From positions 10,396 through 74,395 of the IMG/VR virus record IMGVR_UViG_3300037245_001837: a stretch of DNA of 64,000 nucleotides; one strand, given 5' to 3'. Shown here in pieces: positions 419 to 64,000 of the stretch. This stretch comes from a virus. Position numbers and translations under genes: made by a program. Within the stretch, counting starts at the first letter, position 1, and the number at the start of each line of letters is the position of its first letter. Under the pieces are notes generated by a model. The model made no database searches, was not told the DNA's origin, and saw nothing but the letters and a program-made list of their open reading frames with translations.

Positions 419-424
419 AATATT

Positions 425-1509: not shown

Positions 1510-1513
1510 AAGC

Positions 1514-1663: not shown

Positions 1664-1682
1664 ATTAATTAATCACAAAAAA

Positions 1683-2299: not shown

Positions 2300-3361
2300 A
2301 TGAAAACAAAAATCGTTGGTACGCAGTTTGCCAAAGCAGAAGCAATTGGAATCCAAGAGGGTTCTGAAATTACTATCAGTCACGAACCTACAAATCCATT
2401 TGATGAAAACGCATTAGCGGTTGCATTTAATGGAGAGAAAATAGGTTTCATTGGAAAAGGTACGGACATCTATGATATAGATAGAATAAACTTTCCTAAA
2501 ACTGCAAAGGTTATTGATTTCTACATAAAGGAAGAAGGTGATCAATTTACAAAGCATCAATTAGGAACTTTAGTCTCCTGTAATATTGAACTTCCTGATG
2601 AAGTAAAATTAAAAGGAAAAGATAATGTTAATTCATTCAATGAAGAAAACGTTGTTATTAATTTTAATGAAGATTCTCATACTTACACCTACAAAGGTAA
2701 AGTTTTAAAAGGTGCCACGACTTACATCAAAAAGTATATCAAACCATTCGATAGTGAACTTATGGTTGGTAGATGTGCAAAAGCTTGGAATTTACCAAAA
2801 GGAACTATTGAAGATGCTTGGGAACTTAATCGTGATTTAGCTTCTCAATTCGGAACAGCTTTGCATAAGGCTCTGGAATTTGAGGATTTGTATAGGAGTA
2901 TGAAAAAACCAAAAGACAATAGCAGATGTTTTACAATTAAACATCCTACAATTGTTAAAATAATCACAGAATTCTATGAATTAAACGAGAAATTAGGTTT
3001 TGAAGGTGAAATTATTCCTGAAGCATTGGTTTCTGATGTTGAAAATGGTATTTGTGGTTTAGCGGATAGAATTCTAGTTACCAGTTGGAATGAAAAACGA
3101 TGTAGAATTCAGGATTACAAAGTGAACCATTCATTTAATGTAAAAGGAAAGGAAAGCTTCATTAATCTACCTAAAGGTTTGGTTTTAGAATCTACAAAAC
3201 TTTCAAAACTTTCATTACAATTGAAATTTCACGCAACTATGTTGGAGAAACAAGGTTGGACAGTTGAAGGAGTTGATGGATTTGTCTACACAGATAAATG
3301 GGAATATTATGAAGCCAACTCTTTAGAAGGTTTCGATATTTTAAAAGGAACTTTCAACTAA
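2300..3361 (+). CDS. HIRAN domain fused to PD-(D/E)XK (Cas4/lambda-exo-like) nuclease
   Basis: HEPTNPFDENALAV...KIGFI HIRAN motif; FGTALHKALE, PE, CGLADRI, IQDYK nuclease motifs; ATG 2300 preferred over 2264. Confidence 0.8.
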   Translation: MKTKIVGTQFAKAEAIGIQEGSEITISHEPTNPFDENALAVAFNGEKIGFIGKGTDIYDIDRINFPKTAKVIDFYIKEEGDQFTKHQLGTLVSCNIELPDEVKLKGKDNVNSFNEENVVINFNEDSHTYTYKGKVLKGATTYIKKYIKPFDSELMVGRCAKAWNLPKGTIEDAWELNRDLASQFGTALHKALEFEDLYRSMKKPKDNSRCFTIKHPTIVKIITEFYELNEKLGFEGEIIPEALVSDVENGICGLADRILVTSWNEKRCRIQDYKVNHSFNVKGKESFINLPKGLVLESTKLSKLSLQLKFHATMLEKQGWTVEGVDGFVYTDKWEYYEANSLEGFDILKGTFN

Positions 3362-3369
3362 ATAAAAAA

Positions 3370-3511
3370 TTTGAGATATAAATGGAGGGTAGTCCGTTCA
3401 ATTCGTGACGTTACTTGTGGTGAGTATCAAAGGTTCGATTCCTTTCAACAGAAATGTTAATGGTTGTAGAAAAGTAGGCATACGCTCGGTGGTTCGATTC
3501 CACCACTCAAA
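3370..3511 (+). ncRNA. tRNA-like structured RNA with three T-loop hairpins
   Basis: TTTGAG/CTCAAA closing stem; GTCCG-TTCAATT-CG(T)GAC, AAAGG-TTCGATT-CCTTT, GGTGG-TTCGATT-CCACC; AACA-GAAA-TGTT. Confidence 0.7.
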
Positions 3512-3684
3512 CAAATTAATAATAAAAACAAATTACGATGACTAAGAAAAATCTAGAGACTGAATATTGCAACGAAAGAGGAGAACGTAGTTTTAATAAA
3601 TACAATAACAATGATTACACTAAGTGGCTTGAAAATAAATTAATAACACTAAGCAACGTGCTAGGATAATAAAAACAAATTAAG

Positions 3685-4986
3685 ATGAAAATAAAAACAA
3701 TTACAGTAAGAAATTTCAAAGCCTTATCAGATCAGGAATTGAATTTAAATGGTGCTTCTGCAATAATAACAGCAGGTAATAATGAAGGTAAAACAAGTAT
3801 TTTACGTGGATTAGTGGACAGATTTCGAGGCGAAAAACCAGAAATCATTGTGAAGCAAGGAGAAGAAAAAGGAGAGAATGTAATGGAGCTAACTGATGGT
3901 TCTAAAATAGGGTGGAAATTCACTCATAAAACTGAAAACTTCTCATTTACTACTCCAGAAGGAATTAAAATGACAACTGGCGTTTTAAAATCTATTGGTG
4001 AAATCTATTTTGGTATCAAATTTAGTATTGATAAATTCATTTCCAGTAGTAGAAAAGAACAATTGAAACAGGTTCAAATTTTATTAGGTATCGATTTGTC
4101 AGCTTTAGATCAAAAACATAAAGAGAAATTCGATGCAAGAACTGAAGCCAATCGTGTTGTAAAAACATTACTTGGATTAAATACTAAAAAACCAGAAGTT
4201 GTTGAAAATCCAGATATAGAAGCTATCAAAAAAAGAAAAACAGCAATTACAGAAAATAACACCAAACTTAAAGAGAAGTGGGTTATCGACAATGAAGCAC
4301 ACCAAAAAGAAGCTATTGAATTCAATCAATTGCAGCAACATTACAGAGCAAATATCAAAACACTTTCCGAGCAGAAGCTTGATTTAGAAAAATACAAAGG
4401 TCAAATTGTAGCGACTTTTATTGATTACAAAAAACTAGAAAAGTACATAAATGATATTCCTGAACCACTAATAGACAAAGAGGTGACGAGCCTTGTTGAG
4501 CCTGTTTATGGTCTTTTTACAGGAATTGATAAAGAGATTGAAGATGCTTATACTGATAAAGCAAAATTCGACACCTACAACACTGATTTAACCAATTATA
4601 ATGATTGGGTTGAAAAAGGTGGAAAAGCTCGTAAAAAGGCTGATGAGCTATCAGCAGAGCTTGATAAGATCAATGAAGAAAAATTGAAACTTATTAAAGG
4701 AGCTAATTTGCCAGAAGAATTCAAAATGACTGATAATGGATTGTTATACAAAGGACTTCCTTTAGATGATAATCAGATTTCAAGTTCAGCAAAATACATT
4801 TGTGCTCTTAAACTTGGTGCTTTAAGTCTAGGTAAGGTAAATGCAATGCATTTCGATGCTTCATTTTTAGATAAAAAATCTTTAATGGAAATTCAAGAGT
4901 GGGCAAACAGTCAAGATTTACAACTTTTACTTGAGAAAGTTGATTATGAAGGAGGTTCAATAAAGTATAATTTTATTGAAGAATAA
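3685..4986 (+). CDS. SMC/Rad50-like ABC ATPase
   Basis: N-terminal ITVRNFKA, Walker A AGNNEGKTS, long coiled coil, QISSS signature, MHFDASFLD Walker B/D-loop. Confidence 0.85.
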   Translation: MKIKTITVRNFKALSDQELNLNGASAIITAGNNEGKTSILRGLVDRFRGEKPEIIVKQGEEKGENVMELTDGSKIGWKFTHKTENFSFTTPEGIKMTTGVLKSIGEIYFGIKFSIDKFISSSRKEQLKQVQILLGIDLSALDQKHKEKFDARTEANRVVKTLLGLNTKKPEVVENPDIEAIKKRKTAITENNTKLKEKWVIDNEAHQKEAIEFNQLQQHYRANIKTLSEQKLDLEKYKGQIVATFIDYKKLEKYINDIPEPLIDKEVTSLVEPVYGLFTGIDKEIEDAYTDKAKFDTYNTDLTNYNDWVEKGGKARKKADELSAELDKINEEKLKLIKGANLPEEFKMTDNGLLYKGLPLDDNQISSSAKYICALKLGALSLGKVNAMHFDASFLDKKSLMEIQEWANSQDLQLLLEKVDYEGGSIKYNFIEE

Positions 4987-4988
4987 TT

Positions 4989-5450
4989 ATGAGAGTAATT
5001 AAATTTAAAGCTAAAACATTAGACGGCAAGAAATGGGTATATGGAAATCTCATTGTATTAGAAAACGGATGCCATTACATTTTTAATAGGCATTTTATAC
5101 CTACTACATCAGTTCCTAGCGAGTGGTTTATTGAGGTGATTCCAGAAACAGTATGCCAATTCACAGGATTAAAAGACAAAAACAGCAATGATGTTTATAA
5201 AAGTGATACAGTAAAACACGTAAGGGATTATTCGTTAGTAGATTGTTTCAATGAAGATGAAGATGGTGACATCGACAGAATCGACACGATAATTGGTAAA
5301 TTCATTTTCACAAAAACAAAAGGATTTCATGTATCTGGATATAAATATTCGGTTGATATGGCAGATATAGAAAAGCCTAAACAGAAATATTTAGGAATGC
5401 CGTCCATGATAAGTACTTACGCTGAAATCACAGGTAACATACACGACTAA
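4989..5450 (+). CDS. YopX family protein
   Basis: MRVIKFKAK...WVYGNL...PETVCQFTGLKDKN...ITGNIHD. Confidence 0.9.
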   Translation: MRVIKFKAKTLDGKKWVYGNLIVLENGCHYIFNRHFIPTTSVPSEWFIEVIPETVCQFTGLKDKNSNDVYKSDTVKHVRDYSLVDCFNEDEDGDIDRIDTIIGKFIFTKTKGFHVSGYKYSVDMADIEKPKQKYLGMPSMISTYAEITGNIHD

Positions 5451-5452
5451 TT

Positions 5453-5725
5453 ATGAAAACAGAAAACCCAAGTGCATTTCCTTCAAAAGAAATAGATTAT
5501 CGAGAAAGCGCAATGCAAGGACAAACAGTTTATCATGACCAAGAAATGGGAATGACACTAAGAGATTATTTCGCAGCTAAAGCGATGCAGAGTCTAATAT
5601 CTAAAATAAACGTTAGTGATGAAGACTTAAAATATAGCGATACTATACATCAAATTGTTCCTGTATTAGCTTATCAAGTATCTGACGAAATGCTAAAAGT
5701 ACGAATGAAACCTATTAAAGAGTAG
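5453..5725 (+). CDS. Conserved phage protein
   Basis: SAFP...GMTLRDYFAAKAMQ...AYQVSDEML motif family. Confidence 0.85.
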   Translation: MKTENPSAFPSKEIDYRESAMQGQTVYHDQEMGMTLRDYFAAKAMQSLISKINVSDEDLKYSDTIHQIVPVLAYQVSDEMLKVRMKPIKE

Positions 5726-5729
5726 TACC

Positions 5730-6293
5730 ATGAGAAAAATAACAATCAAAGAAACAGACGTATTTCTTGAAAATCATAAAAAAGGACAAGGAAAAATTAC
5801 TATAAGTAATACCTATGGTAAAAACTTTTCAAATTTCTGGGGTTCGATGGGTGAAACACTAGAAGAATTCCTTTGCGGTATCAATCCAGAATATTTTGCA
5901 ACAAAATTACTTCCACCAAGTGATGAACGTATTATTGATATTAAGGCAACATTTAAAAATGTAAGGAAATATATTCGTGAAGAATTAGATATGCCATTTT
6001 ATAAAGAAATGGAATTTCAAAAAGACATGCGAGAAAAATTAAAGGAATTTCAAGATCAATGTGAAGAACGAGGTGGTAAATATAGATTTGTAGATGGTTT
6101 TCATGATTTCTTTGTGGATAGTCTTGATTTTTATTTAATAGCTGATAGCTATGACAGTAATCAAGTTAAAGAAAGTTTTCAGGGAATATGTGAACATTGG
6201 CAATTCCTAGAAGAAAAACCTTCAGAAGATCATGATTGGTTAATTGACTTTCATGCTAGATTAAAAAAGGAATTATTGAAACCTATTAAATAA
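5730..6293 (+). CDS. Hypothetical phage protein
   Basis: GKITIS...FWGSMG...EFL motif; ORF track. Confidence 0.75.
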   Translation: MRKITIKETDVFLENHKKGQGKITISNTYGKNFSNFWGSMGETLEEFLCGINPEYFATKLLPPSDERIIDIKATFKNVRKYIREELDMPFYKEMEFQKDMREKLKEFQDQCEERGGKYRFVDGFHDFFVDSLDFYLIADSYDSNQVKESFQGICEHWQFLEEKPSEDHDWLIDFHARLKKELLKPIK

Positions 6294-6300
6294 ATCAACA

Positions 6301-6612
6301 ATGGAAAAAGATTTTGTAAAAGAAGTATTAGAAGACAATAATACATTTGGAGGTTTTAAAATTACAGGCTACAAAACAAGTAAGTTTGATAAAAACAAGA
6401 AAAACCCACCTATGTATGGAGCAGCCGAAGACTTAACAGGAATGACTGTAATTCATTGGTGTACAGAAGGACATCATTGTAATTATTTTGGATTGGATTT
6501 AAAACCAAATATATCAGTTACTATCGGAAAAGATGGAGATACTAGAACAGCGTTTAACGGATATGTACACACTAAAGAAGATTTTGAAAAAGTATTGAAA
6601 CTAACTTGGTAA
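6301..6612 (+). CDS. Hypothetical protein
   Basis: ORF track. Confidence 0.7.
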   Translation: MEKDFVKEVLEDNNTFGGFKITGYKTSKFDKNKKNPPMYGAAEDLTGMTVIHWCTEGHHCNYFGLDLKPNISVTIGKDGDTRTAFNGYVHTKEDFEKVLKLTW

Positions 6613-6752
6613 ATAACTCAACAATGAAAACAGATATAGTAAAAAACGGAAAAGGACACGATATTTTTGTAAATGACCAATGGGTAACGTGGGTTATTGG
6701 AAGTAAAAATAACGCTGAAAAAGAATTGAAAACTTACTTAAAAAAATAAGTT

Positions 6753-7166
6753 ATGGAAATATACTTGGTAAAACAATTAGACAACAGCTTTAAAGTTGCT
6801 TATGATTCAGATTTTGAGAAACTTAAAAAGATCAAAGCATTGAAAATGGTGAAATGCATTATTACGCAGCCTAGGAATATCGGTTTTCATAAAAAATTCT
6901 TTGCTTTAATTAAAATGGTTTACCAGAATCAAGAACATTATAAGAATTCTGATGACCTAAGAGCTGATTTAATTGTTTCAGCAGGTTTTTATGAGAAAAG
7001 GGTATCATTCTTTGGTGAAGAAATTTTGAAGCCTAAGAGCATCAGTTTTGCCAGTATGAAACAAGATGAATTTGATGAACTTTATGGTGCTGTATTAGAT
7101 GAAATTGTAAAACATTTTCATTTTGATAAACAGGCTATAATAGAAAATGTAGAACAGTATTTTTAA
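6753..7166 (+). CDS. DUF1367 family protein
   Basis: PRNIGFHKKFFAL...PKSISFASMKQDEFDELY. Confidence 0.88.
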   Translation: MEIYLVKQLDNSFKVAYDSDFEKLKKIKALKMVKCIITQPRNIGFHKKFFALIKMVYQNQEHYKNSDDLRADLIVSAGFYEKRVSFFGEEILKPKSISFASMKQDEFDELYGAVLDEIVKHFHFDKQAIIENVEQYF

Positions 7167-7170
7167 AATT

Positions 7171-7437
7171 ATGAAACAGTCAATTATATCCATTCCAGAA
7201 AGTAACCTTTCAAATGCTATTAAGTTATTTGATAAATACAATATTGAATATAGATTATTAGGTTATCCTAATGGTAAAATTGAGACAGTTGAAAGTTTTC
7301 CTTCAAAGATGAATGTATATAATGATATGCAGAAATTCGCTAAACAATTAGGATATAAAAATACTATTGAAGCAATTATTGAAATTGGAGGTGGTAGAGC
7401 TTTTAAAGCAAAATTTGATAAAGAATTTAAAGAATAA
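7171..7437 (+). CDS. Hypothetical protein
   Basis: ORF track. Confidence 0.65.
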   Translation: MKQSIISIPESNLSNAIKLFDKYNIEYRLLGYPNGKIETVESFPSKMNVYNDMQKFAKQLGYKNTIEAIIEIGGGRAFKAKFDKEFKE

Positions 7438-7448
7438 ATATTTAAGTT

Positions 7449-8189
7449 ATGAGAATTAACGGATTTGAACAAATAAAAGGTTTTTATTCTTGGGTGTTCA
7501 GTAATCAAGACAAACAAATTAGAAGCACACATATTTCATTGTACATGTTTTTAGTAAACCAGAACAATAGAAACAATTGGGTTGAATGGTTTAAGTGTCC
7601 TTTTGATTTAGCGATGGGAGGAAGTGGTATAAGCAACAAAAAAACATATTATACTACTTTGCTAGATTTGCAAGATTGGAAGCTGTTAGAATACGTAAAA
7701 GGAGTGAATAATTTCAAAGCTCCTTTGATAAAACTTGAGGTGCTATATGATACCTCAACTGTACCACAGAGTGAACCTCAACTGCAACCGCAAGTGATAC
7801 CTATACCATTACCTCTACTGCAACCGCAACTGTATAAGAATATAAAACTATTAACTAGTAACTTAGAACTAATAACCTTAAACATAGAAAAAATTATAAT
7901 TTTTTTAAAAAGTGATTTATCAGAAAAATTTAATTTTAAAAAGTCTTTAATTAATTTAGGTGTTGAAAAAGAAATAATTTCTGATTGGTTAGCTGTTAGA
8001 AAAAAGAAAAAAGCAACAAATTCTGAAACAGCTTTTAAAAAAATAGAATCTGAAATTAAAAAATCAAAATTAAAACCAAATGAGGCTATAAAAATAGCAG
8101 TAGAAAATAGTTGGAGTGGTTTTAATAGTTCTTGGATTGAAAATATTAGTACTAATACACAAAACGGAACTTATCGTGGAAACAGGTAA
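7449..8189 (+). CDS. Phage replication initiator (lambda O-like organisation)
   Basis: N-terminal winged-helix-like region, internal DNA repeats, C-terminal DWLAVRKKKKA...ENSWSGF domain, upstream of a DnaC-like ATPase. Confidence 0.8.
   Translation: MRINGFEQIKGFYSWVFSNQDKQIRSTHISLYMFLVNQNNRNNWVEWFKCPFDLAMGGSGISNKKTYYTTLLDLQDWKLLEYVKGVNNFKAPLIKLEVLYDTSTVPQSEPQLQPQVIPIPLPLLQPQLYKNIKLLTSNLELITLNIEKIIIFLKSDLSEKFNFKKSLINLGVEKEIISDWLAVRKKKKATNSETAFKKIESEIKKSKLKPNEAIKIAVENSWSGFNSSWIENISTNTQNGTYRGNR
7751..7884 (+). repeat. Iteron-like array, probable replication origin
   Basis: Seven ~12-bp tandem units (WACCNCAACTG consensus, 7751-7833) followed by six 7-bp-period AAC(T) repeats (7846-7884). Confidence 0.7.
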
Positions 8190-9168
8190 AAGAAAAAAAA
8201 CAGACCCAACAAGAATAAGTGATCTAATAATTTCTGAAATTATTGGTAAAAAACCACGTATGCCACAAACATACGCCATGAGAAGAATCAGAAATAATCC
8301 AGAGGATATTGAATTTTGTGATAGCATTGATAAAAGAATTTCTGAATGGGATAAAAAAGCTGATAAAGTAAGGAAGCAAAAAACTATTGAGAAGAAAAAA
8401 AATATAAAATTATCTGATGATTTTGTAGTTAAAAAAATACCTCCAATAATTCTAAAACCTGAACAGATTTATGCTGATTTTATTAGGGTTTATAAAATAT
8501 TAAGTAAAAAAGATTTTCAGGAAAAAAATCCTTATTCAGAAACCGATGAACCTTACTTATATGTAAAAACATTGATTTATTATTTCATGAAGGATGATAG
8601 ATTTTTTAAAAGTCCACTTTTAAGAAAAGATTTATCAGAACCTAGTTTTGAAAAAGGAACATTATCAATTGGAGGATATGGTTGCGGAAAAACCACAACA
8701 TTCAATGCTTTATTATTTTGCTTCAAGAATTTTTTAAAACACGTTGAAAAAACTACTCCAGAGAATCAAAAAGAATTAAAAAATAAGTATTCCGTAAACA
8801 AATGTATTTCATCTGAAATAGTTCACAGATATGATACAGCAATATCAAAGCATGATTTAAATGAAATACTAAAACCTCTTATTGGATCAACAGATTTGTA
8901 TGTTGATGATATTATGAGGGAAAAGGATGCTCAAAATTTCGGTAAAAATAATATTTTTTTAAATGTTCTAACAATTAGAGCAGACAGAGATTATAAATCT
9001 CATTTATCAATGAATCCTGTTGAAATTAAAGTAAATGATGAGATTACATTTAAGAACACAGAAGAGTCATTGCAGGAGTTCAGGATTAGGTATGACGGAA
9101 GAATACACGATAGATTATTTGGAAACTATAACATCATTGAATTAACTGGTAAAAGCTTCAGAAGATAA
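8116..9168 (+). CDS. DnaC/IstB-like P-loop ATPase (helicase loader); start may be GTG at 8176
   Basis: GGYGCGKT Walker A, LYVDD Walker B, RYDGRIHDRL...GKSFR C-terminus. Confidence 0.85.
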   Translation: MVLIVLGLKILVLIHKTELIVETGKRKKTDPTRISDLIISEIIGKKPRMPQTYAMRRIRNNPEDIEFCDSIDKRISEWDKKADKVRKQKTIEKKKNIKLSDDFVVKKIPPIILKPEQIYADFIRVYKILSKKDFQEKNPYSETDEPYLYVKTLIYYFMKDDRFFKSPLLRKDLSEPSFEKGTLSIGGYGCGKTTTFNALLFCFKNFLKHVEKTTPENQKELKNKYSVNKCISSEIVHRYDTAISKHDLNEILKPLIGSTDLYVDDIMREKDAQNFGKNNIFLNVLTIRADRDYKSHLSMNPVEIKVNDEITFKNTEESLQEFRIRYDGRIHDRLFGNYNIIELTGKSFRR

Positions 9169-9186
9169 TAATAAAAATTATAACCT

Positions 9187-9420
9187 ATGAAAACAGACTC
9201 AACTATAAGAAAAGCTGCTGAAATAATAGTAAAAGAACAGTTTGGAAGTATCTCATTAATTCAAAGAAGATTAAAATTAGGATATAATAAATCTGCAAGA
9301 ATAATGGATGATTTAGAAAACTTAGGTGTAGTTGGAGCTTTTCAAGGAGTTAAACAAAGAGATGTTTTAGTTAATAAAATGGATGATTTAGAAAAAATAT
9401 TAACACTAAATAATATCTAG
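9187..9420 (+). CDS. Stand-alone FtsK gamma domain protein
   Basis: GSISLIQRRLKLGYNKSARIMDDLENLGVVG...RDVLV matches the FtsK-gamma winged helix. Confidence 0.88.
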   Translation: MKTDSTIRKAAEIIVKEQFGSISLIQRRLKLGYNKSARIMDDLENLGVVGAFQGVKQRDVLVNKMDDLEKILTLNNI

Positions 9421-9422
9421 TA

Positions 9423-10157
9423 ATGGAAAGTACTGTTTACAATGAAGATTGGAGAAAAACAACTAAAAATATTCCTGATTTATTTTTTGATTGGGTTGTT
9501 GATGATGTTCCATACGGTTTAAATGTTGCTAACATGCCATATTTAAATGAGAAAAAAACATTGGTTAAACAAAAAAACGGTACTAAATTAAATCCAAACA
9601 AAAATAAAAAAGGATACACGGTAAAAGATTGGGATTTAAAACCTCCAAGTCAGGATTATTTTGACGAAATGAGAAGAATTTCTAAAAATCAGATAATTTT
9701 TGGTGTAGAATATGTTGATTGGGATGGGTTAGGAAAAGGCAGGATCAAATGGAATAAAGGAGTTGCAAAAGGAATGAGCTTTAAAGATTATGAAATGGCT
9801 TATTGTTCAAGTATAGAACATACTCATATCCTAAACTTATTATGGAATGGAATGCGACAAGCTGCAAACTTAAAACATCCTATGAGGCAACAGGGTAATA
9901 AAAAACTAAATGAAAAAAGAATACACCCATGCCATAAACCAATACTTCTTTATAAAAAAATAGCAATAGATTTCGATTTAAAAGGCAAAAAAATCTATTG
10001 TGGTCATAATGGTTCTGGAAGTGACAGAATAGCTTTTGAGAATTTTGTAGAGTTATTTATGGCAAGTGAAATTGATAAAGAATATTTTGATAAGCAGGAA
10101 GAAAGATATAAAAATTTCAATGGAGCAATTAAGCTCTTCCAAAATCATACGATATGA
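9423..10157 (+). CDS. DNA N6-adenine/N4-cytosine methyltransferase (beta class)
   Basis: DVPYG (DPPY-like), HPCHKP, GHNGSGS, EIDKEYF. Confidence 0.85.
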   Translation: MESTVYNEDWRKTTKNIPDLFFDWVVDDVPYGLNVANMPYLNEKKTLVKQKNGTKLNPNKNKKGYTVKDWDLKPPSQDYFDEMRRISKNQIIFGVEYVDWDGLGKGRIKWNKGVAKGMSFKDYEMAYCSSIEHTHILNLLWNGMRQAANLKHPMRQQGNKKLNEKRIHPCHKPILLYKKIAIDFDLKGKKIYCGHNGSGSDRIAFENFVELFMASEIDKEYFDKQEERYKNFNGAIKLFQNHTI

Positions 10158-10555
10158 CAAGACAAACCTCAATTGACTGTTATCACCAGATAAAAGCAGA
10201 AGGACTTTTATCAGATATGAGATTTAGTGTTTATCAAGCACTTTATAACCTAAATAAGCCATCTACAAGAAGGGAGGTTTATGCAACTATGAATGTTTCA
10301 AATCAAGAATCGACTAGATTTACCGAATTACGTAATCTGGGTGTTATCTATGAAAAAACAACCAGAAAATGCTCTATTTCAGGAAGAACATCTATTGAGT
10401 GGGATTTAACAGATAATATTCCAGACAAATCATTACTAAAAAAGAATACAAAACCTAACAACCTTAAAAAATGCATAAAGTTCATATTAAACAATATGGC
10501 TGAAAAAGGATTAATGTGGATTAACCCAAGTGAAATAAAAAGCCTTTTAGACTAA
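10154..10555 (+). CDS. Winged-helix DNA-binding protein
   Basis: TSIDCYH...RFTELRNLGVI...RKCSISGR...W motif. Confidence 0.65.
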   Translation: MTRQTSIDCYHQIKAEGLLSDMRFSVYQALYNLNKPSTRREVYATMNVSNQESTRFTELRNLGVIYEKTTRKCSISGRTSIEWDLTDNIPDKSLLKKNTKPNNLKKCIKFILNNMAEKGLMWINPSEIKSLLD

Positions 10556-51843: not shown

Positions 51844-52275
51844 ATGAAAATAATTATAATTGACATAGACGGAACAGTATCAAAAGTTGGTGACAGGCTA
51901 AAATATTTGAAAGAGTCACCTAAAAATTGGGATGCTTTTTATAACTCTTGTTTTGAAGATGAGCCTATTCAGGAAATAATAGATTTTTTACATATCATTC
52001 AAAACGATTATAAATTTGTTTTTTGTACTGGAAGAAGAGAAAGTGTAAGGTTTGACACATCAATGTGGTTAGAAAATAATGGTCTTTTTGGAGATTTGTT
52101 AATGCGACCTGATAATGACTTTAGACACGATACAATTGTAAAGCCAGAACAATTAGAAAAAAATAACATACTCCTTGACGAAGTGGCTTTTGTATTAGAA
52201 GATAGAAACGCAATGGTTGAAAAATTCAGAGAATTAGGATTAAGAGTTCTTCAAGTAGCAGACGGTAATTTTTAA
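51844..52275 (+). CDS. HAD-family phosphatase (T4 PNK phosphatase domain-like)
   Basis: DIDGT, CTGR, LLMRPDNDFRHD..VK, EDR, LQVA.GNF. Confidence 0.9.
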   Translation: MKIIIIDIDGTVSKVGDRLKYLKESPKNWDAFYNSCFEDEPIQEIIDFLHIIQNDYKFVFCTGRRESVRFDTSMWLENNGLFGDLLMRPDNDFRHDTIVKPEQLEKNNILLDEVAFVLEDRNAMVEKFRELGLRVLQVADGNF

Positions 52276-52278
52276 GTT

Positions 52279-52941
52279 ATGGCTAAACCAAAAAAATGCA
52301 AAGGAACTGGACAGGCTAAAGGTTTTGGATGTAATAAACCTTTAACCTTTTCAGAGTCAAATGGAATTAAAAGTTATAATTCAAAATACGGATTATGTCC
52401 AACTTGTCAATACGAATGGGCAACTACTAATGATGCAGGAAAGGTTTGGTTTCAGAAAAGTTTAATTTCTAATAAGAAGAAAAAGGAAAAAGAAGAAAAC
52501 GCAATACACAGAGAAAAGAAAAGATCTATTGATGAGACAGGAGCAATGCGATTAGCTGATATGTATTTCAGTAGATACATAAGAGTTCTTTATAGTGATG
52601 ATAATGGATATTGTACTTGTTACACTTGTGGAACTGATGTTTTTTTAAAAGAATTGGATAACGGACACTATCAGAAAAGGGAGCATAAAGCAACAAGGTA
52701 TCACGAAAATAATTGCAGACCACAATGCAAAACTTGTAATGGAGATACAAAGCACAATGGCAAACAGGCAGAGTTCAGAGTTCACCTATCAAACGAAATT
52801 GGAGAAGAAGAAGTATCAGAAATCGAAAGATTAGCTAATACAACTATAAAAGCAAATTCACTGTTCTTTAGAAATATAGCAGATTCATATCGAATAAAAT
52901 CTAATGAACTTCAAAAAATAAAAAAAGTAAAACACTGGTAA
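52279..52941 (+). CDS. NinG/Rap-like recombination endonuclease
   Basis: FSRYIR...CTCYTCG...DNGHY...TRYHENNCRPQCKTCN. Confidence 0.88.
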   Translation: MAKPKKCKGTGQAKGFGCNKPLTFSESNGIKSYNSKYGLCPTCQYEWATTNDAGKVWFQKSLISNKKKKEKEENAIHREKKRSIDETGAMRLADMYFSRYIRVLYSDDNGYCTCYTCGTDVFLKELDNGHYQKREHKATRYHENNCRPQCKTCNGDTKHNGKQAEFRVHLSNEIGEEEVSEIERLANTTIKANSLFFRNIADSYRIKSNELQKIKKVKHW

Positions 52942-54728: not shown

Positions 54729-55109
54729 ATGGAAAAAGAATATCTACATAAAAAAGTAATAAAAGTACCGTTATACAAAGGTTTATTAGTTTTAATATTT
54801 TCTAATTCAGTAGAAAAAGTAAAACAAGTTGTTAAGGATTATAATAGAAATAGTGTTTACGCTCATGCTTGGCGTTTCAATTATAAAGGAAAAGAAGGAA
54901 ATGCCATAATACTCAACTTTAATAATGATGAGAAATTAACTCATGGTACTATTGCTCACGAAGCTTACCACATAGCTAATTTCATAGCGGATTCAAGAGG
55001 TTTAATACCAGATCACATTAATGATGAGCCAATAGCTTATTTGATAACTTGGATAACAAATGAGGTTTATAAATTTATGAATAAAAATAATTTCAAAATA
55101 GAAAAATAA
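54729..55109 (+). CDS. Small HExxH metallopeptidase-like protein
   Basis: TIAHEAYH...NDEPIAYLITWI. Confidence 0.75.
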   Translation: MEKEYLHKKVIKVPLYKGLLVLIFSNSVEKVKQVVKDYNRNSVYAHAWRFNYKGKEGNAIILNFNNDEKLTHGTIAHEAYHIANFIADSRGLIPDHINDEPIAYLITWITNEVYKFMNKNNFKIEK

Positions 55110-55726
55110 TGGCAAAAAAAACAGAGGTTACAGATTCAAAAACAAAAAAGATAAACCAATTTACAGGTGGTAAAATTGAGACTTTTACTATTCCTGATTA
55201 CCCTAAAAGTTGTGGAGATGGAAAACTTCCAGATTCTTTTTTAGCGAAAGACGGTACTTATATTGGAGACTACTCAAAAGGATTATGGTATTTGAAGCAT
55301 AATATGTTAGTGTGTTTTGAATATCCTTCTGGAGTTAGTATAATTTTAAAACACCCTGTAAAAGAATACCTATATCTTGACTCTTACATGACAGATGGTA
55401 TTGTTGGAGGTGATGATACTGAAGCTTATTATGGGTATTCTCATAGAGGTGGTAATAAATTTAAAATTGGTGATCGTTTATTTGATCCTAGTTATGAACC
55501 AAAAGAAGAAGATTACACTAAGGAAGAGTGGGAAGGATTTAAAGCTGATAGAGAAAAATCTATTTTAAGAAATATCAAAGACGGTTTCTGTAAAAACAGA
55601 GAAGAAGCAGAAAAAGAAACCCCATTGGCTGCTGTAATAACATTCAATAAAAGAGGCTCTAAGGTTATAGAGACTTGGGATGAAGCAAAACAGGCAGCTA
55701 TTAACTTATCTAAGGATTTATCATAA
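55109..55726 (+). CDS. Conserved phage protein
   Basis: DGTYIGD...YYGYSHRG...FKIGD...EAKQAAIN. Confidence 0.75.
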   Translation: MAKKTEVTDSKTKKINQFTGGKIETFTIPDYPKSCGDGKLPDSFLAKDGTYIGDYSKGLWYLKHNMLVCFEYPSGVSIILKHPVKEYLYLDSYMTDGIVGGDDTEAYYGYSHRGGNKFKIGDRLFDPSYEPKEEDYTKEEWEGFKADREKSILRNIKDGFCKNREEAEKETPLAAVITFNKRGSKVIETWDEAKQAAINLSKDLS

Positions 55727-57756: not shown

Positions 57757-57786
57757 AAAAACCCTCTAATCATCAGAGGGTTTTTT
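57757..57786. terminator. Bidirectional terminator
   Basis: AAAAACCCTCT-aatcatc-AGAGGGTTTTT at convergent junction. Confidence 0.75.
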
Positions 57787-58191
57787 CATTTTAGGATTGT
57801 AAAGCTTTATAATATACATGGGATTAAGAATATAATAATCTTTGAAAGGTGTTTTTAAAAGTAATTCAAGGTCTAAAAATTTCCTTCTGGTTTTATAATA
57901 ACTTCGCTCACTACATAAATCTGAATAAGTACCATATCTCAAAAACAACCCACCACTTTCAGCAGGATTTCTACCACTTTTTACTCCAGTTAAAATACGT
58001 TCCCATATTCTGTAATCAACAATACCAAATTCCTGTTGCTTAATATCAGTTAATAGTATCGAATGTTTGAAATATCCACGTAGGCTTTTATAATACGAGA
58101 AACTTACACCATTTAGACTTGAGCTTCGTATAATTTCTCTATAATATTTTTCTACCCAAGCAGGTAGTAACTCATCTTTATCTAAAATCAC
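57766..58191 (-). CDS. RepL-like winged-helix protein
   Basis: SERSYYKTRRKFLDLELL...YYILNP HTH-wing pattern. Confidence 0.5.
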   Translation of the reverse strand: MILDKDELLPAWVEKYYREIIRSSSLNGVSFSYYKSLRGYFKHSILLTDIKQQEFGIVDYRIWERILTGVKSGRNPAESGGLFLRYGTYSDLCSERSYYKTRRKFLDLELLLKTPFKDYYILNPMYIIKLYNPKMKKPSDD

Positions 58192-58529
58192 GATGGAACT
58201 ATTTTAGTAACATTATCTTTTATAATATTTTTTTTATCGAAACCTCTAGTCAATTGAAGGAAGCTTCTACCAACTGATTTAATAGTCCATAATCTAGGAT
58301 CACCTTCAATATGAACCTGCATACCCTTCTCAAAATTCAATTCATCATGAGCATTGATTTTAGGTTTTAATTCCTGTTGAGGTTTTCGTTTACGCTTTTC
58401 TGGTGCAGGTCTAATACCCCTAGAAGTACAAACGCTATTTACTAAAGCGTGAGTACATCCAACAATTATATGAATTGAATTAAATTTGATGTTACCTATA
58501 CAGGCTTTTATTTTTTCTGATTTAGTCAT
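58188..58529 (-). CDS. Hypothetical protein
   Basis: ORF track. Confidence 0.65.
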   Translation of the reverse strand: MTKSEKIKACIGNIKFNSIHIIVGCTHALVNSVCTSRGIRPAPEKRKRKPQQELKPKINAHDELNFEKGMQVHIEGDPRLWTIKSVGRSFLQLTRGFDKKNIIKDNVTKIVPS

Positions 58530-58905
58530 TTAATGTTTTCTCAAATTCTTTTTTCATTTCGTGTATTCTATCAACAATCCATGCCAATAAATAACATTCA
58601 GGCTCGTCATTATGTCTATCCAGTTTGTGCCGTATTGTAATAAATATGTTATTTACAAGATGTTTCGATTCGTGTGCTATTAGTCCTGCTTCAGGACATC
58701 CTTTTTCGTTAGCATAAAAAACAATATATAAATGGTCTTTATGATTGAAAACTGCACCTCCAAAGTCAGAAAGAATACCACTTGCCTCTGAGTCTTTAAA
58801 ATATTCTTCTGCCTCTTCTGGATTTTCGTAAATCACACAAGTAAATTCTATTTGGTAAAGAGGCGTTTCAAATTTTTTTATTTTCATGGTTTGTTTTGTC
58901 TTCAT
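58522..58905 (-). CDS. Small HExxH metallopeptidase-like protein (paralogue of 54729..55109)
   Basis: LIAHESKH...NDEPECYLLAWI. Confidence 0.75.
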   Translation of the reverse strand: MKTKQTMKIKKFETPLYQIEFTCVIYENPEEAEEYFKDSEASGILSDFGGAVFNHKDHLYIVFYANEKGCPEAGLIAHESKHLVNNIFITIRHKLDRHNDEPECYLLAWIVDRIHEMKKEFEKTLND

Positions 58906-58926
58906 GTACTGTAGGTTTTAGACTAA

Positions 58927-59473
58927 CTAATTGGAACTGTACCAGTTAAAAAATTCTACACCTGAAGAGAATTCAGACCAATTTATATGAATATTTAAAA
59001 ATAACACAGTTAAAATTACTGATTTATATTCAAATTTAATAAGTAAGCCTAATTGCCAGTATGCGTATATCGAAAATATATAAGGGTATCCCATAATTAT
59101 TTTATTATTTTGTTATATTCATCTTTATCGATTAGCAATAAAATTGGTATTCTATCTCCATTAATCACTTTCATAAGTTCATTTTCAGGTACACCAATTG
59201 ACACTTTACCACCACCTTTAACCTTATCAGCAGAAACAAGACTTGTGCAAACCCCCAAAAGCTCTGTTCCGTTTTTGTCATCAGCAACAGTTAAGTCATC
59301 AAGTTTTTGAAATATCCTTTTTTTCATTATTTTGAGGTTTCAGGATTAGACTCTTTACAATCTTGGTCATTTTTACATTTACACATATTTTTCTTGCCTT
59401 TTAAACAAGTTTCATATAAGTAATCTTCTGAGTTAAATGAGCCTTGAAGTATCTTTGTAGTTGGGTATTCCAT
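58927..59473 (-). CDS. Three small reverse-strand genes (59327..59473, 59097..59327, 58927..59094)
   Basis: Abutting ORFs of 48, 76 and 55 aa with coupled stops/starts. Confidence 0.55.
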
Positions 59474-59732
59474 TATTTATCCATTTTAAAGTTTCTATTA
59501 TTAAAAAAAGTATCGAAGGGTGAAGCGGTTTATGTCCTGTCGCTTTTAGGTATCCCGCAATTCTGTGTTTAATGTACAATCCACACAGCGCAACATTTTC
59601 ACCCTTCCATACTCCTATTTCCATCATTTCTATTATATCGTGTATTAGATAAAATAGAGTGTTATTTATGCTGCATCTCAACAGCACTACAAACATAATG
59701 AAAAAATGCATACCAAATACAAAACATAGCAT

Positions 59733-60782
59733 AAAAGTGTATCCTGTGTGCAGTAAAAAAAAGAGTTAACTTTCTAATAAACAGTATCTTATCTATCAAA
59801 TACACCTAATCTATATTAATACGTAAGTATATAAAACTATGATACTCACATACCAATACTCATTATAAGAGCTTCTAAGAGACTTAATTTATTCTAACAG
59901 TACAATATGTCTTTTATAGTATATATTCCAAAAGAGTATAGGTTCTGCTATTCAGGAAGCTTATTTGTACGCATTGTTCCTGTCAGTTTTTTAATAGTTT
60001 CGATTCAAGTGTGTATTAGAGGTTAGTAGTAGTAATATGCGTGTATAATCCAAGAGGGAAGATGCAAATCTAAAAGGCACACCCCTGTTGTTTGAATTTT
60101 ATACCTGAAATGTTTTTGAACTTTTGTATGTGGTGTGTTGTTGTACTTGATTTTATTATACTACTATCTTAATGCAGGAGTGAGAGAATAAAAGTAATAG
60201 CATAGTGTACTAATTGATTAGGGTAAAACACTTATGTACGTATTTCGTTGGTTGTGGTGCATTCTCCTGAGCTTGTACGGTACATTGTACTGCTAAGTTT
60301 CATATACTCGCTTAAATTGGCAGTATAGATAACAATTATTATACTATTTGTACTTTATTGTTATGAATATGTATGTTTTGGGGTTAAGTACCTTATAAAA
60401 GAAAAGAAAAGCATTGTTATTGTTAGCCTATGTTATGAGGTATTAATCTATGTTGTATTTAATTGTTCATATAGTTGTGTGGTGTTTGGTGTAGAATTGT
60501 TAGTTGTGTTGTTTTACTGGGGTTAGGTGATTGATGTACTTTAGTAATGTATTGATCTTTTTAGGTATGATCTAAGTATATTAACACTCTTTTGAATTGA
60601 AGTATTTTATGTTATTGTTGTAAGTCCTTTGTTTGTGTGGTTGCAGCTCATTATATATTTTATACTTTTATTAGTATTTATAGTTATATTAGATATAATA
60701 GTTGTATATTTACTATGTAGTAAGGAAATGGAAATATTTACTACAAAGTCTAACTTAATAAAAACATTTAATACATAATATT
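59733..60782. other. Large non-coding divergence zone (candidate genome end/packaging or control region)
   Basis: No ORF of 60 aa or more; switch to G/T-rich + strand; GTAC cluster; promoter-like TATATTTA at 60705. Confidence 0.6.
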
Positions 60783-61119
60783 ATGAACGTAAACAAAGCA
60801 ACCGCAATAGTTACAATCTTAAGTATATCTTTATTTGTTATCCTATTGTCAAATTTCACATTTGATGAGGCTACGACAAAAATTTTAAATAACATATTAG
60901 AAACCTCAACAGATATAGCAATCCCTGTTATATTCGTAATACTATTTATATTCCTTTACGTTTCTATAATGGGAACAGGAAAAAACACCTCTAAATAAAA
61001 TCACTATGAAAACATTACTATTAAAATACTTGAACATCATACTTTGTACATGGGCAGTTTTATTCATTGCATTGGCGATTATCGGACTTATACAAAATAC
61101 TAACACGTTAACTTATTAA
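60783..61119 (+). CDS. Two small membrane proteins (60783..60998, 61006..61119)
   Basis: Strongly hydrophobic segments; first genes after promoter. Confidence 0.6.
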
Positions 61120-61135
61120 TTTAAAACTTTATACG

Positions 61136-61432
61136 ATGAAAAATTTAAACAGTTTACAAAAAGCAATGTTAAAAGCTCTATTATTATTAGTTTGTTTATT
61201 CGCTATCACAGCAGCCACAGCGCAAACAGAGTATAAAATACAAGGGAATGAGATTGTAAAAGTACAGGACAGCACCAAAGCCAAAGCGCAACCAGTTAAA
61301 ACGGGATTGATCCACAAAATAAAAAATGTTTCTTATCCTGTTTTTAAAAGTGTTCGAGGTTCTTATTTTATTTTAAGAACATCCAAAAAAACAGGAAAGC
61401 AGTACAAACAATATTTAAAAATTTCTAAATAA
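61136..61432 (+). CDS. Secreted basic protein
   Basis: Signal peptide ending ATA-Q; YPVFKS.RGSYFILRTSKKTGK.YKQYL. Confidence 0.75.
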   Translation: MKNLNSLQKAMLKALLLLVCLFAITAATAQTEYKIQGNEIVKVQDSTKAKAQPVKTGLIHKIKNVSYPVFKSVRGSYFILRTSKKTGKQYKQYLKISK

Positions 61433-61439
61433 TAGTATT

Positions 61440-61748
61440 ATGAAAACAGCAACTATAAAAATATTACTTTATTCTATTTCAGAACTACAGGAGCAACCAA
61501 AGGATATAGCTATACAGGAACACGAAAATTTTTTAGTGTCTCAGGGCATGGAAATTGAAAACGAAGAAGGAAAACTTGAAAATATACCGTACAACCCAAC
61601 AAAGGAAGAAATTATTGAAAGTATAGAAATTAACGATTATTTATTTTTTAAAAATGGAGACATGGCTAACTGTACTACTTTTGTAGGCAATCATCCAAGA
61701 GCAGGTAAAACAGTATTAAACTTTAGAGGTTCAGAGTACGAAATTTAA
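61440..61748 (+). CDS. Conserved phage early protein
   Basis: LYSISEL...KDIAI...IIESIEINDYLF..NG motif. Confidence 0.65.
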   Translation: MKTATIKILLYSISELQEQPKDIAIQEHENFLVSQGMEIENEEGKLENIPYNPTKEEIIESIEINDYLFFKNGDMANCTTFVGNHPRAGKTVLNFRGSEYEI

Positions 61749-61760
61749 AATTATTAAAAT

Positions 61761-61835
61761 AATCGATTGAGCGATTTAAAAAAGGTTTTTAAGCTCAAAG
61801 CGTTGGACAGGTTTTTTATTCCTGTTCAGGTAAAC
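61761..61835 (+). ncRNA. Pistol self-cleaving ribozyme
   Basis: P1 AATCG/CGATT, pseudoknot TTGAG/CTCAA, AAA linker, P2 GTTT/AAAC, TTAAG, AGCG, P3 TGGACAGG/CCTGTTCA, G-G|T cleavage site. Confidence 0.88.
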
Positions 61836-61850
61836 ACAAAAATATATATT

Positions 61851-62360
61851 ATGTTCAAATTAGATGTTATTTATTATAAGGAAAATGCAAAGGTTATAAA
61901 ATTAGATCATAATTGCAAAACTGAAAACGGAATTACACCAGAGGAACAATTTAAAATCGTTGAAATTATAGGAGACTACGAACAACTAAAAATCGAAAAC
62001 CAATACCAACAACAATATATAATAAATTCTAACCAGATACAGGAGCCAACACAAAAAGAAAGGTTTTTTATTGAATGGGAAAATGTTACACTTATTAAAA
62101 TATTTGAAACGAAAGTAATTGACAACCGAACAAAAGAAAATGATTATATAATTTTTAGTATTGCTATTGATGAAGAAAAGGAAAATTTTACAGCTCAACA
62201 CGTAGGATTGACAAAAGAAGAAGAGCAGAGCAATAAAATATCGTTTAAAAGTATTGATATTGATTTTGATTTTAGTATTGACGAACACCTGCAAGAATTA
62301 CACGAAGAATGCCAAAACGCAATTTTACAAAGTGATATTTTTACACTTGCAGAAGATTAA
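61851..62360 (+). CDS. Hypothetical protein (true start probably ATG 61851, not TTG 61767)
   Basis: Upstream part of the track ORF is occupied by the pistol ribozyme; A-rich leader before ATG. Confidence 0.7.
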   Translation: MFKLDVIYYKENAKVIKLDHNCKTENGITPEEQFKIVEIIGDYEQLKIENQYQQQYIINSNQIQEPTQKERFFIEWENVTLIKIFETKVIDNRTKENDYIIFSIAIDEEKENFTAQHVGLTKEEEQSNKISFKSIDIDFDFSIDEHLQELHEECQNAILQSDIFTLAED

Positions 62361-62397
62361 AAAGAAATTATAAAAACAACATCTAAATATATATATC

Positions 62398-63057
62398 ATG
62401 AAAACATTAAACCATAGAGAACCAAAAACAATCACAAACGACATACAAACCTTTTTAAAAGATTATAAATTTATAAAAAAGGAGTTTTTAAACGATCCTA
62501 AATATTTGGAGTTAAAAAAAGAACTACACGAAAGCCAAAACGCATATAAATTTAATGCAATGTATTTATTTATAGAGGCTCAAAACATTGTTAACAATCA
62601 TTTAAACAAATTACAGCCAGAATATGAAAAAATAATAAATAATATTTTAGGTCAAAAATTTGAAAATATGGATTGTAGCCGTAACCATAAATTAAAAAAT
62701 ATTTTTGATCATATAGAAGGTGTAAAAACAAAAGAGCTTAAAAATTATAGTTACAGGATAACAACCTCAACAGCCAGAAGCTATAATAATTTTATTTTAA
62801 CGGTTGATGTTTATATATGGAATGGATCAAATAACGCACGATACAGCGATACAAAATATATAGCAAAATTTGAGAATCAAACCAGTTTTTGCGGATTTTA
62901 TGAGGCACACAAATTTGAGACTTTTAATGTAAAAACAGAATTAAAAAAGCTGAAAAAGTACGAAGCCGAAAAAAAGAAATTTGAAGAGCTTAAAAGCAAA
63001 CTAAATAATCCTTTTATGAGCCAATTTTTATTTAATTTTAATAGAGACCAATTTTAA
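62398..63057 (+). CDS. Hypothetical protein
   Basis: ORF track. Confidence 0.7.
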   Translation: MKTLNHREPKTITNDIQTFLKDYKFIKKEFLNDPKYLELKKELHESQNAYKFNAMYLFIEAQNIVNNHLNKLQPEYEKIINNILGQKFENMDCSRNHKLKNIFDHIEGVKTKELKNYSYRITTSTARSYNNFILTVDVYIWNGSNNARYSDTKYIAKFENQTSFCGFYEAHKFETFNVKTELKKLKKYEAEKKKFEELKSKLNNPFMSQFLFNFNRDQF

Positions 63058-63059
63058 AA

Positions 63060-63401
63060 ATGAAAGAGACAGCCAACACACAAACCGAAAACACAAGATT
63101 TACCGATTATATGAATAAATCATTAAAATTTAGAACTCAATTAAATAAATACATGAGTTCCAGAGGTGAAGATTTAAGCATAAAAGTAAGCGTTTTTAAT
63201 TTACTTGATAAAGTAGATCATAAAAGCGAAAAAAACCAAGAATTTAGAAACGAGTTTTTTAAATGGTTAAGCAATGCAAAAGGATACAGCACAATAAAAT
63301 TAAGAGAATTTTGCAAAATCGTTGACGTTGACTACTGGCGAAGCTTAAAAGAATCTAATGTTATAGATGTTTTTGATTCGTGCAGTTGCTTAAATAGCTA
63401 A
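63060..63401 (+). CDS. Hypothetical protein
   Basis: ORF track. Confidence 0.65.
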   Translation: MKETANTQTENTRFTDYMNKSLKFRTQLNKYMSSRGEDLSIKVSVFNLLDKVDHKSEKNQEFRNEFFKWLSNAKGYSTIKLREFCKIVDVDYWRSLKESNVIDVFDSCSCLNS

Positions 63402-63468
63402 AAACCAACACAAAAAAACAAGAAAAAGCAATTTTGCAGCAAAACACCAAAAAGCCAACATTATGAAA

Positions 63469-63555
63469 TAGTTAAAAAAATATCGAAATAGCCAATTAAC
63501 AACTGGCTATCGTGTAAAACGTGTTGAAATTTGCACCTGATGAGCAACACAACTA
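63469..63555 (+). ncRNA. Type II hammerhead ribozyme with 1-bp stem II and pseudoknot
   Basis: C-GAAA, stem III TAGCCA/TGGCTA, ATC cleavage triplet, stem I GTGTAAA/TTTGCAC, CTGATGA-G, loop I GTGTTG pairs with 3' CAACAC. Confidence 0.9.
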
Positions 63556-63572
63556 ATTTAAAAAAATATATC

Positions 63573-63692
63573 ATGAAAGATTTACAAATATTAAAACAGT
63601 TATTAAACGGGCATCATTTAGAACCTAAAGAAATAGAACAGGCAAAGAAGGTTTTAAACAGATTAAATATTGAATTAAAAAACAGGTTATAA
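63573..63692 (+). CDS. Small hypothetical protein (39 aa)
   Basis: MKDLQILKQLLNGHHLE..., downstream of hammerhead. Confidence 0.6.
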   Translation: MKDLQILKQLLNGHHLEPKEIEQAKKVLNRLNIELKNRL

Positions 63693-63704
63693 AAAATTAA
63701 GATC

Positions 63705-64000
63705 ATGAAAAATACATATAGAACAAACGAAGAACTAAAAAAGTACTTTAATAAATCATTATATCAAATTAAAACCTCTTTAAGAAAAGGCGAAGTAAAA
63801 ACAAACGTTAAAAAAGTTTTAGTTTACAACCCTTTAGATTTTAGTAAAAGAATTGCACCATGTAGCGGTTGCGATATTGTTATAAATAACGACTCTACAA
63901 ACAGCGATTATATTTTCGATTTAAAAAAAGGTTTAAATACTTCAACAAGTGCCTTTAGTTTGCACAGATACAAAGAAATTAACATTTTCACATTTTGCGA
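63705..64000 (+). CDS. Partial hypothetical protein (runs off window)
   Basis: ATG with A-rich leader, frame appears open to the window end. Confidence 0.55.
   Translation, partial: MKNTYRTNEELKKYFNKSLYQIKTSLRKGEVKTNVKKVLVYNPLDFSKRIAPCSGCDIVINNDSTNSDYIFDLKKGLNTSTSAFSLHRYKEINIFTFC

Follow-up and report, generated by a model that had tools for sequence, protein, structure and literature searches.

Our analyses of a 64,000-nucleotide (nt) stretch of viral DNA (hereafter the window, positions 10396-74395 of the 74,395-bp IMG/VR virus record IMGVR_UViG_3300037245_001837; GC content about 29%) identify a pistol self-cleaving ribozyme and, downstream on the same strand, a probable type II hammerhead ribozyme within a block of small genes. 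The phage clade to which the window belongs has four complete genomes, and every one of them carries coding-strand pistols in this block. On the evidence of sequence, we consider it probable that these ribozymes self-process the message of the block, which would constitute the left end of the packaged genome, into messenger RNAs (mRNAs) with short leaders and 5'-hydroxyl (5'-OH) ends. From the same features we infer that cleavage takes place in vivo, that the block is read as a single early transcript and that the phage benefits from the cuts.

The pistol ribozyme and the hammerhead candidate

The argument concerns two elements, both located near the end of the window:

61761-61835, + strand: pistol self-cleaving ribozyme (Rfam RF02679, scoring 58.1 bits where the gathering score is 34.5)
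63481-63553, + strand: probable type II hammerhead ribozyme (RF02276, 26.1 bits, short of the gathering score, which is 37; core and helices legible in the sequence)

The identity of the first is beyond doubt as far as its sequence goes, cleavage itself being predicted. As the initial annotation of this DNA had proposed, it is a pistol: the RF02679 match is full-length (model positions 1-68), and the GU and all of the helices are legible, namely P1 (61761-64/61773-76), a 6-bp pseudoknot (61767-72/61793-98), P2 (61785-88/61832-35) and a 9-bp P3 (61803-11/61821-29). The predicted cut falls between G61830 and U61831, 20 nt ahead of the ATG at 61851, and the 3' end of the fold lies 15 nt ahead of that ATG. 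A mechanically compiled list of open reading frames (ORFs) contains a TTG-start frame (61767-62360) that would overlap the pistol; since the first ATG is at 61851, the ribozyme fills the intergenic gap between the stop at 61748 and this ATG rather than lying inside an ORF. At 35% GC it is unusually AT-rich in comparison with the pistols of related phages (51-60%). Rfam scans of the whole window at the gathering threshold, of 59500-64000 at E <= 10 and of record positions 1-10500 at E <= 1 revealed no further ribozyme besides the pistol.

The second element was missed by these 64-kb and 4.5-kb scans, and its RF02276 match appears in a narrow search only. Its structural features nevertheless lead us to regard it as very probably a working hammerhead, so that the earlier claim of a hammerhead at this site is retained in respect of core, stems and pseudoknot, and qualified by a score below the cut-off. 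The 11-nt core is complete (C11.1 at 63484; G12-A14, GAA, at 63485-87; C17 at 63511; CUGAUGA at 63537-43; G10.1 at 63544). Stem III comprises 7 bp (63488-94/63504-10) and opens with the A15.1-U16.1 pair A63488-U63510, while stem I comprises another 7 bp (63512-18/63530-36); both are closed by loops and stem II, which consists of the single pair C63484-G63544 (G10.1-C11.1), is open, as in the type II permutation. Loop I forms a pseudoknot with the 3' tail, as it does, over at least 4 bp, in the majority of type II hammerheads; here it amounts to 6 bp between GUGUUG (63521-26) and CAACAC (63545-50), starting directly after G10.1.

This architecture has a close parallel in the type II hammerheads of Perreault et al. 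(2011; PMC3088659), in which loop I pairs with the tail 3' of stem II, stem II can be very short and the majority possess the pseudoknot; one example from a metagenome, whose stem II is a single pair and whose pseudoknot has 6 bp, cleaves at >1.2 per min in a pseudoknot-dependent manner. The window site shares with those ribozymes (Figs 2 and 4 of that study) the permutation, the single G-C pair of stem II and the 6-bp pseudoknot directly after it; unlike them, it is a predicted ribozyme that scores below the Rfam cut-off, has AU-rich stems and lacks sequence relatives.

The hammerhead is predicted to cut after C63511, giving a downstream RNA that begins at G63512 and carries a 61-nt leader to the ATG at 63573, with the pseudoknot ending 22 nt ahead of this start codon. 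The assignment of the start to ATG 63573, and not to the ATG inside CUGAUGAG, is based on the related IMG/VR genome G003, in which a 38-amino-acid (aa) homologue of the 39-aa downstream product (70% identity) begins at the identical MKDL. Both elements are therefore located just upstream of a start codon, as the initial annotation stated, and the distance of 1.7 kb that it gave corresponds to 1,681 nt between cut sites, both on the + strand and both intergenic; pistol and candidate together make two predicted coding-strand intergenic ribozymes within a few kb.

The opposing view, according to which only the pistol is genuine and 63481-63553 is a non-cleaving chance look-alike in AT-rich intergenic DNA, appears to us unlikely. 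In its favour are the score of 26.1 bits against a cut-off of 37 and the failure of the wider scans to see the site, together with AU-rich stems and an unremarkable minimum-free-energy fold of the region (z -1.15). Relatives, viral contigs and metagenome contigs yielded no homologous copy, which leaves the site as a singleton without covariation, and the G003 homologue of the downstream gene has no ribozyme ahead of it. Searches for the locus elsewhere gave a similar picture: neither the 219-aa protein encoded upstream of the site, used as a query in viral contigs, nor the 98-aa start of a downstream gene, used in metagenome contigs, retrieved relatives of the hammerhead locus; no Hammerhead_II match was obtained at E <= 1 in five related records; and a DNA pattern for hammerheads with the same pseudoknot matched 50 viral stretches, approximately the chance expectation, of which one marginal descriptor match was left.

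Against the look-alike stand the full core, the closed stems and a 6-bp pseudoknot in the expected register, the low RF02276 score being partly explained by the fact that covariance models are blind to pseudoknots; the consensus stems of the model are, in addition, GC-rich. A custom-made hammerhead descriptor, with 400 dinucleotide-shuffled genomes as the control, found exactly one site in the real genome, any site at all in 4 of the 400 shuffles (1%) and a pseudoknot of at least 5 bp in 1 of the 400, and none of 50 other pistol-bearing viral records (~3.7 Mb) yielded a Hammerhead_II match at E <= 1e-3. The site moreover occupies an intergenic position on the coding strand, at 1.7 kb from a ribozyme that is certain, and different ribozyme classes are known to cluster in this manner (PMC4604425, PMC6765202).

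Pistols in the genome-end block of the clade

The phage represented by the window is most likely a 74.4-kb Pachyviridae-like podovirus infecting marine Flavobacteriia, its DNA probably originating from a marine-sediment metagenome; the one sequencing run listed as containing 60700-64000 is a DNA run from marine sediment, and no RNA run is listed for it. Terminase, portal and structural genes are recognisable in its genome, and its nearest cultured relative is Tenacibaculum phage Gundel_1 (NC_062747.1; Pachyviridae, Gundelvirus; a 78.8-kb podovirus), with which it shares a virion protein at 57.6% identity. Uncultured relatives comprise two complete IMG/VR genomes, G002 (75.8 kb) and G003 (70.8 kb), in addition to the fragments G001 and G004; the clade comparisons reported here concern the four complete genomes, that is, the window phage, Gundel_1, G002 and G003. 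The 74,395-bp record bears a 127-bp end repeat and is thus a closed assembly, in which the last gene of the window runs on at record position 128; since plus-strand genes continue past the record junction, the small-gene block does not end at 64000.

In all four genomes, a short minus-strand block is followed by a non-coding gap of 0.8-1.35 kb, after which the small-gene block begins. The ORF lists place this gap in the window as follows:

59733-60782: non-coding gap of 1,050 nt between the minus-strand block 57766-59732 and the plus-strand small-gene block

Its counterpart by position is the Gundel_1 region in which PhageTerm predicted a 322-bp physical terminal repeat, the small-gene block of Gundel_1 beginning ~1 kb from the physical genome end. 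The position of this terminal repeat inside the Gundel_1 gap indicates that the block is the left end of the packaged DNA and, if other podoviruses are a guide, this end would enter the cell and be read first, which fits the term 'early'. The gaps of the four genomes have almost no sequence in common, the best match being a 41-bp stretch (window 59793-59833, 85% identity with G002) that represents the sole notable similarity between gaps.

The initial annotation had suggested a survey of related phages for ribozymes at equivalent junctions, and pistols proved to be present in this block throughout. Gundel_1 has one (65.6 bits, 2564-2642, between gp005 and gp006 and 2.5 kb from the left physical end), G003 has three (58-67 bits), and G002 has five (56-71 bits) inside 3.4 kb, compared with one pistol and the hammerhead candidate in the window phage. 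Their placement is strikingly regular: relative to the upstream stop, the starts of all ten fall in the range from 20 nt ahead of it to 21 nt past it, and in nine of the ten the cut falls 20-29 nt ahead of the ATG, leaving an A/U-rich leader, with 15-24 nt between pistol 3' end and ATG. Of 72 pistols on other viral contigs, 19% show the same cut-to-ATG spacing, versus 4.8% of random positions, in a crude survey of ATG-only ORFs of at least 40 aa that understates proximity; it can therefore be described as a tendency of the class to which the clade holds tightly. The one pistol without a close start codon (G002 1287-1392) is followed by a 101-nt spacer containing two GC-rich complementary pairs interleaved in pseudoknot order, with a nested fold that is no more than mildly unusual (z -1.6) and no Rfam match.

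The ten pistols are 53-80% identical. Helices P1 and P2 together with the pseudoknot account for 140 cells, of which 137 are paired, with compensatory changes at 10 of 14 positions, while the P3 stems are unrelated in sequence and the GU is invariant; helices maintained by compensatory change imply that each copy is under selection to fold. Judging from the sequences compared, the ribozymes are a property of the block and not of particular genes.

These data also bear on a scenario in which the ribozymes are active but mere passengers of gene-cassette turnover in a hypervariable block, with little or no benefit for expression. Copy number (1, 1+1, 3, 5) and position differ among the four genomes, flanking genes are almost never shared, several of the most similar pistol pairs occur within one genome (80% and 78% identity), which suggests local duplication, and 45 of 50 other pistol-bearing viral records contain a single copy. 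The preservation of the helices and of the GU in all ten pistols and the spacing of 20-29 nt to the ATG in nine of them argue, on the other side, for selection on function and placement, and neither transposase, integrase nor repeat borders were detected around the ribozymes. On balance we hold this scenario to be improbable.

Proposed message processing, its alternatives and known systems

In the processing model that we favour, each ribozyme would fold during transcription of the block and cut itself by internal transesterification. After the pistol cut, the upstream message would retain nearly all of the ribozyme fold at its 3' end, terminated by a 2',3'-cyclic phosphate, and the downstream message would be released with a 5'-hydroxyl and an unstructured, A/U-rich leader of 20 nt. 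The hammerhead would leave stem III on the upstream RNA, with stem I and the core remaining in the 61-nt leader. Both folds end 15-24 nt ahead of the AUG, just outside the ribosome footprint. The likely effect would be to uncouple neighbouring cistrons in stability and translation, the ribozymes acting as protein-free processing sites or insulators. The presence of a hammerhead and a pistol at equivalent positions in one block argues that it is the act of cutting that matters, and not the class of ribozyme. Processing of polycistrons is the standing hypothesis for ribozymes of bacteria and phages (PMC6765202), and multiple hammerheads in prophage polycistronic RNAs cleave both in vitro and in vivo (Perreault et al. 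2011, PMC3088659).

Several observations weigh against the processing model. Its second ribozyme is visible to RF02276 only in a narrow search and has no homologous copy, and the G003 homologue of the gene downstream of it evidently needs no ribozyme. The genes flanked by pistols are almost never common between the genomes of the clade, and ribozyme count and position vary among close relatives, from which it follows that the ribozymes do not belong to any given gene and that the phage may be able to do without them. Finally, promoters could not be located, so that one transcript is assumed, and structure predictions indicate that the left block of Gundel_1 is probably more than one transcription unit.

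The question of promoters deserves separate attention, as the initial annotation had placed a promoter-like motif at 60705 in front of an early operon. The motif, TATATTTA, matches the Bacteroidota -7 box at 7 of 8 positions, but it is one of 255 occurrences of TAnnTTTA in the window; the exact box TAnnTTTG is absent from the + strand of the gap 59733-60782 and does not exceed its expected frequency in any of the four clade blocks, and sigma-70-like sites are at chance level (30 versus 31.6 in shuffles). The 60705 'promoter' does not stand out from chance occurrences. What survives of the early operon, supported by comparison only, is a set of predicted self-cleavage sites between the cistrons of a left-end block. 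No terminator-like site was found on the + strand of 59000-64000.

It might alternatively be supposed that the genes preceded by ribozymes have promoters of their own, and that the ribozymes only cut read-through RNA, as substitutes for terminators or as insulators. No promoter is assignable to the block, the Gundel_1 block contains structured gaps and a terminator-like hairpin, and a near-consensus -7 box lies in the P3 loop of the Gundel_1 pistol, all of which would be compatible with such an arrangement. Yet the 15-24 nt between pistol 3' end and ATG are too short for a promoter, and exact TAnnTTTG is no commoner than expected in the four blocks; we accordingly rate this arrangement as quite unlikely. 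The 243-nt intergenic gap in question (Gundel_1 4497-4739) folds into three strong hairpins (-55.9 kcal/mol, z -5.1); the terminator-like one comes last and is flanked by an A-run and a U-run. The -7 box (TAATTTTG, Gundel_1 2623-2630) is situated inside an enlarged P3 loop and may be a coincidence.

Translation in Flavobacteriia starts on short, A-rich leaders that lack structure, and does not involve Shine-Dalgarno pairing. In such hosts the pistol cut might provide internal cistrons with a short, promoter-independent 5'-OH leader resembling that of the primary transcript, a proposal that we advance as a long shot. If it were true, the spacing of 20-29 nt would amount to a rule of translational activation, an internal start being used poorly when uncut and well when cut; moreover, as the upstream stop codon lies inside the pistol in several cases, ribosomes completing the preceding gene would exert a further control on cleavage.

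A further proposal of the initial annotation was that the RNA 61831-63511 might be circularised by an RtcB-type ligase, with a HAD/PNKP phosphatase at 51844 healing the ends. RtcB joins 5'-OH and 2',3'-cyclic phosphate ends, so that the termini of this fragment would suit it, and the HAD_PNKP domain is real (PF25109, 1.2e-24). Nevertheless, a search for RtcB (PF01139) that covered the 74.4-kb phage genome, and not that of the host, gave no match, while 10 of 14 control genomes matched. The two fragment ends are derived from different ribozyme folds and their partner strands leave with the neighbouring fragments; consequently nothing, and in particular no helix, holds the ends together. The phosphatase domain (51844-52275, + strand) is a lone 143-aa unit without a kinase domain, 10 kb from the ribozymes, and is located directly upstream of a NinG-like gene (the two within 51844-52941, + strand) in a DNA-metabolism module; Gundel_1, G002 and G003, all three of which carry pistols, lack it in a search that recovers the window copy as positive control. 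We have therefore rejected circularisation and its phosphatase partner as unsupported, and see hardly any prospect of their being correct.

In T7, host RNase III reportedly cuts the early RNA between cistrons of the first-entering and first-transcribed block (Dunn and Studier), leaving 5'-phosphate and 3'-OH ends. The processing model resembles this system in its intercistronic cuts, in the structured 3' end left upstream and in the freed ribosome-binding region, and differs from it in that the RNA would cut itself, leaving 5'-OH and 2',3'-cyclic phosphate ends; the analogy is functional only.

The RiboJ synthetic ribozyme insulators, attributed to Lou et al. 2012, are reportedly engineered parts. 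They resemble the present arrangement, as do the self-cleaving ribozymes of RNA viruses, in that a ribozyme just 5' of a coding region strips the upstream context and defines the leader; RiboJ is nonetheless engineered and the RNA viruses are eukaryotic, whereas a natural role in bacterial phages is only putative. The RNA viruses have been reported to employ self-cleaving ribozymes in initiating translation (bioRxiv 10.1101/2024.05.16.594327).

Closer to the window are the multi-hammerhead polycistrons of prophages (Clostridium scindens, Azorhizobium caulinodans, Agrobacterium tumefaciens ardA; PMC3088659), in which several same-strand ribozymes likewise occupy gaps between small genes within a few kb, and which were proposed to cut the polycistron, with cleavage shown in vitro and in E. 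coli (PMC3088659). Unlike these arrays, the block of the window combines a pistol with a probable type II hammerhead, belongs to a lytic-type podovirus, lies near the end that probably enters first and is known here from its sequence; the clade relatives have pistols only. With respect to the pistol class (RF02679; Weinberg et al. 2015; Harris et al. 2015, PMC4604425), the window copy has the same P1-P3, 6-bp pseudoknot, conserved nucleotides and cut between G and U. Pistols are known near phage genes and other ribozymes, the clustering of classes being the very signal that led to their discovery (PMC4604425); what distinguishes the clade from described pistols is the AUG spacing of 20-29 nt throughout, for which no earlier description was found.

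Pistols are common in IMG/VR, where >119 stretches match one strict pattern. Among the 50 sampled records, 45 have one copy, four have two and one has five, and the absence of a type II hammerhead from all 50 makes the mixed pair uncommon, though not new in kind. Arrays of ribozymes between phage genes have been known since 2011, and the window locus adds a member to them. What the hundreds of self-cleaving ribozymes close to phage genes do biologically is, according to a review (PMC6765202), still open, and the locus leaves that question unanswered. What it adds is a whole phage clade with pistols in the same genome-end block at a fixed distance of 20-29 nt from the start codon (nine of ten). 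As the clade includes a cultured pair, Gundel_1 on Tenacibaculum sp. AHE14PA, knock-out and end-mapping are practical; the Gundel_1 pistol goes unmentioned in the paper describing that phage.

Gene content of the block and further elements

The genes of the block in the window, all on the plus strand, are the following:

60783-60998, + strand: 71-aa ORF, upstream of the pistol
61006-61119, + strand: 37-aa ORF, upstream of the pistol
61136-61432, + strand: 98-aa ORF (phrog_16207), upstream of the pistol
61440-61748, + strand: 102-aa ORF, upstream of the pistol, with its stop at 61748
61851-62360, + strand: 169-aa ORF, acidic; first gene after the pistol, between the cut sites
62398-63057, + strand: 219-aa ORF (phrog_33743), homologue of Cellulophaga phage phi4:1 gp131; between the cut sites
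63060-63401, + strand: 113-aa ORF, between the cut sites
63573-63692, + strand: 39-aa ORF, downstream of the hammerhead
63705-64000, + strand: start of a 137-aa ORF (phrog_37594) that crosses the record junction into position 128 onward

The four ORFs ahead of the pistol (60783-61748) are tightly packed. The protein encoded at 61851-62360 (36 D+E, pI 4.5) is without a family match; its acidity is typical of DNA-mimic anti-restriction proteins, a reading that nothing else backs. Of the genes of the block, a single one, gp131, is also present in the Cellulophaga phages phi4:1 and phi17:2, which contain neither a pistol nor a Hammerhead_II match.

The stop/start junctions of the block share a repeated context, …CTAAATA…ATCAyTATGAAAAC…, at 60980-61017, 61417-61448 and 62372-62409, as well as at 61117-61159 and 63554-63596, and this repetition suggests a common signal for translation initiation or re-initiation. 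In the left block of Gundel_1, a conserved element of ~60 nt occupies two gaps (1266-1362 and 3259-3354) and recurs in two other IMG/VR contigs, L198 (6507-6599, - strand) and L199 (9776-9868, + strand). Its invariant core, TTATTCGGnnCGnTACCGACA, lies in an outer stem with compensatory changes (GCCTTG/CAAGGC, GCGTG/CACGC, CCCTTTG/CAAAGGG, CATTGT/ACAATG); the element has no Rfam match and is absent from the window.

Elsewhere in the phage, a PHROGs search of the 2,571-aa and 1,410-aa virion proteins gave no polymerase signal. The 205-aa product of 55109-55726 (+ strand) matches Pfam Tad6, an inhibitor of type I Thoeris (2.4e-15; 57 bits against a cut-off of 27), and its gene is on this basis a candidate anti-defence gene.

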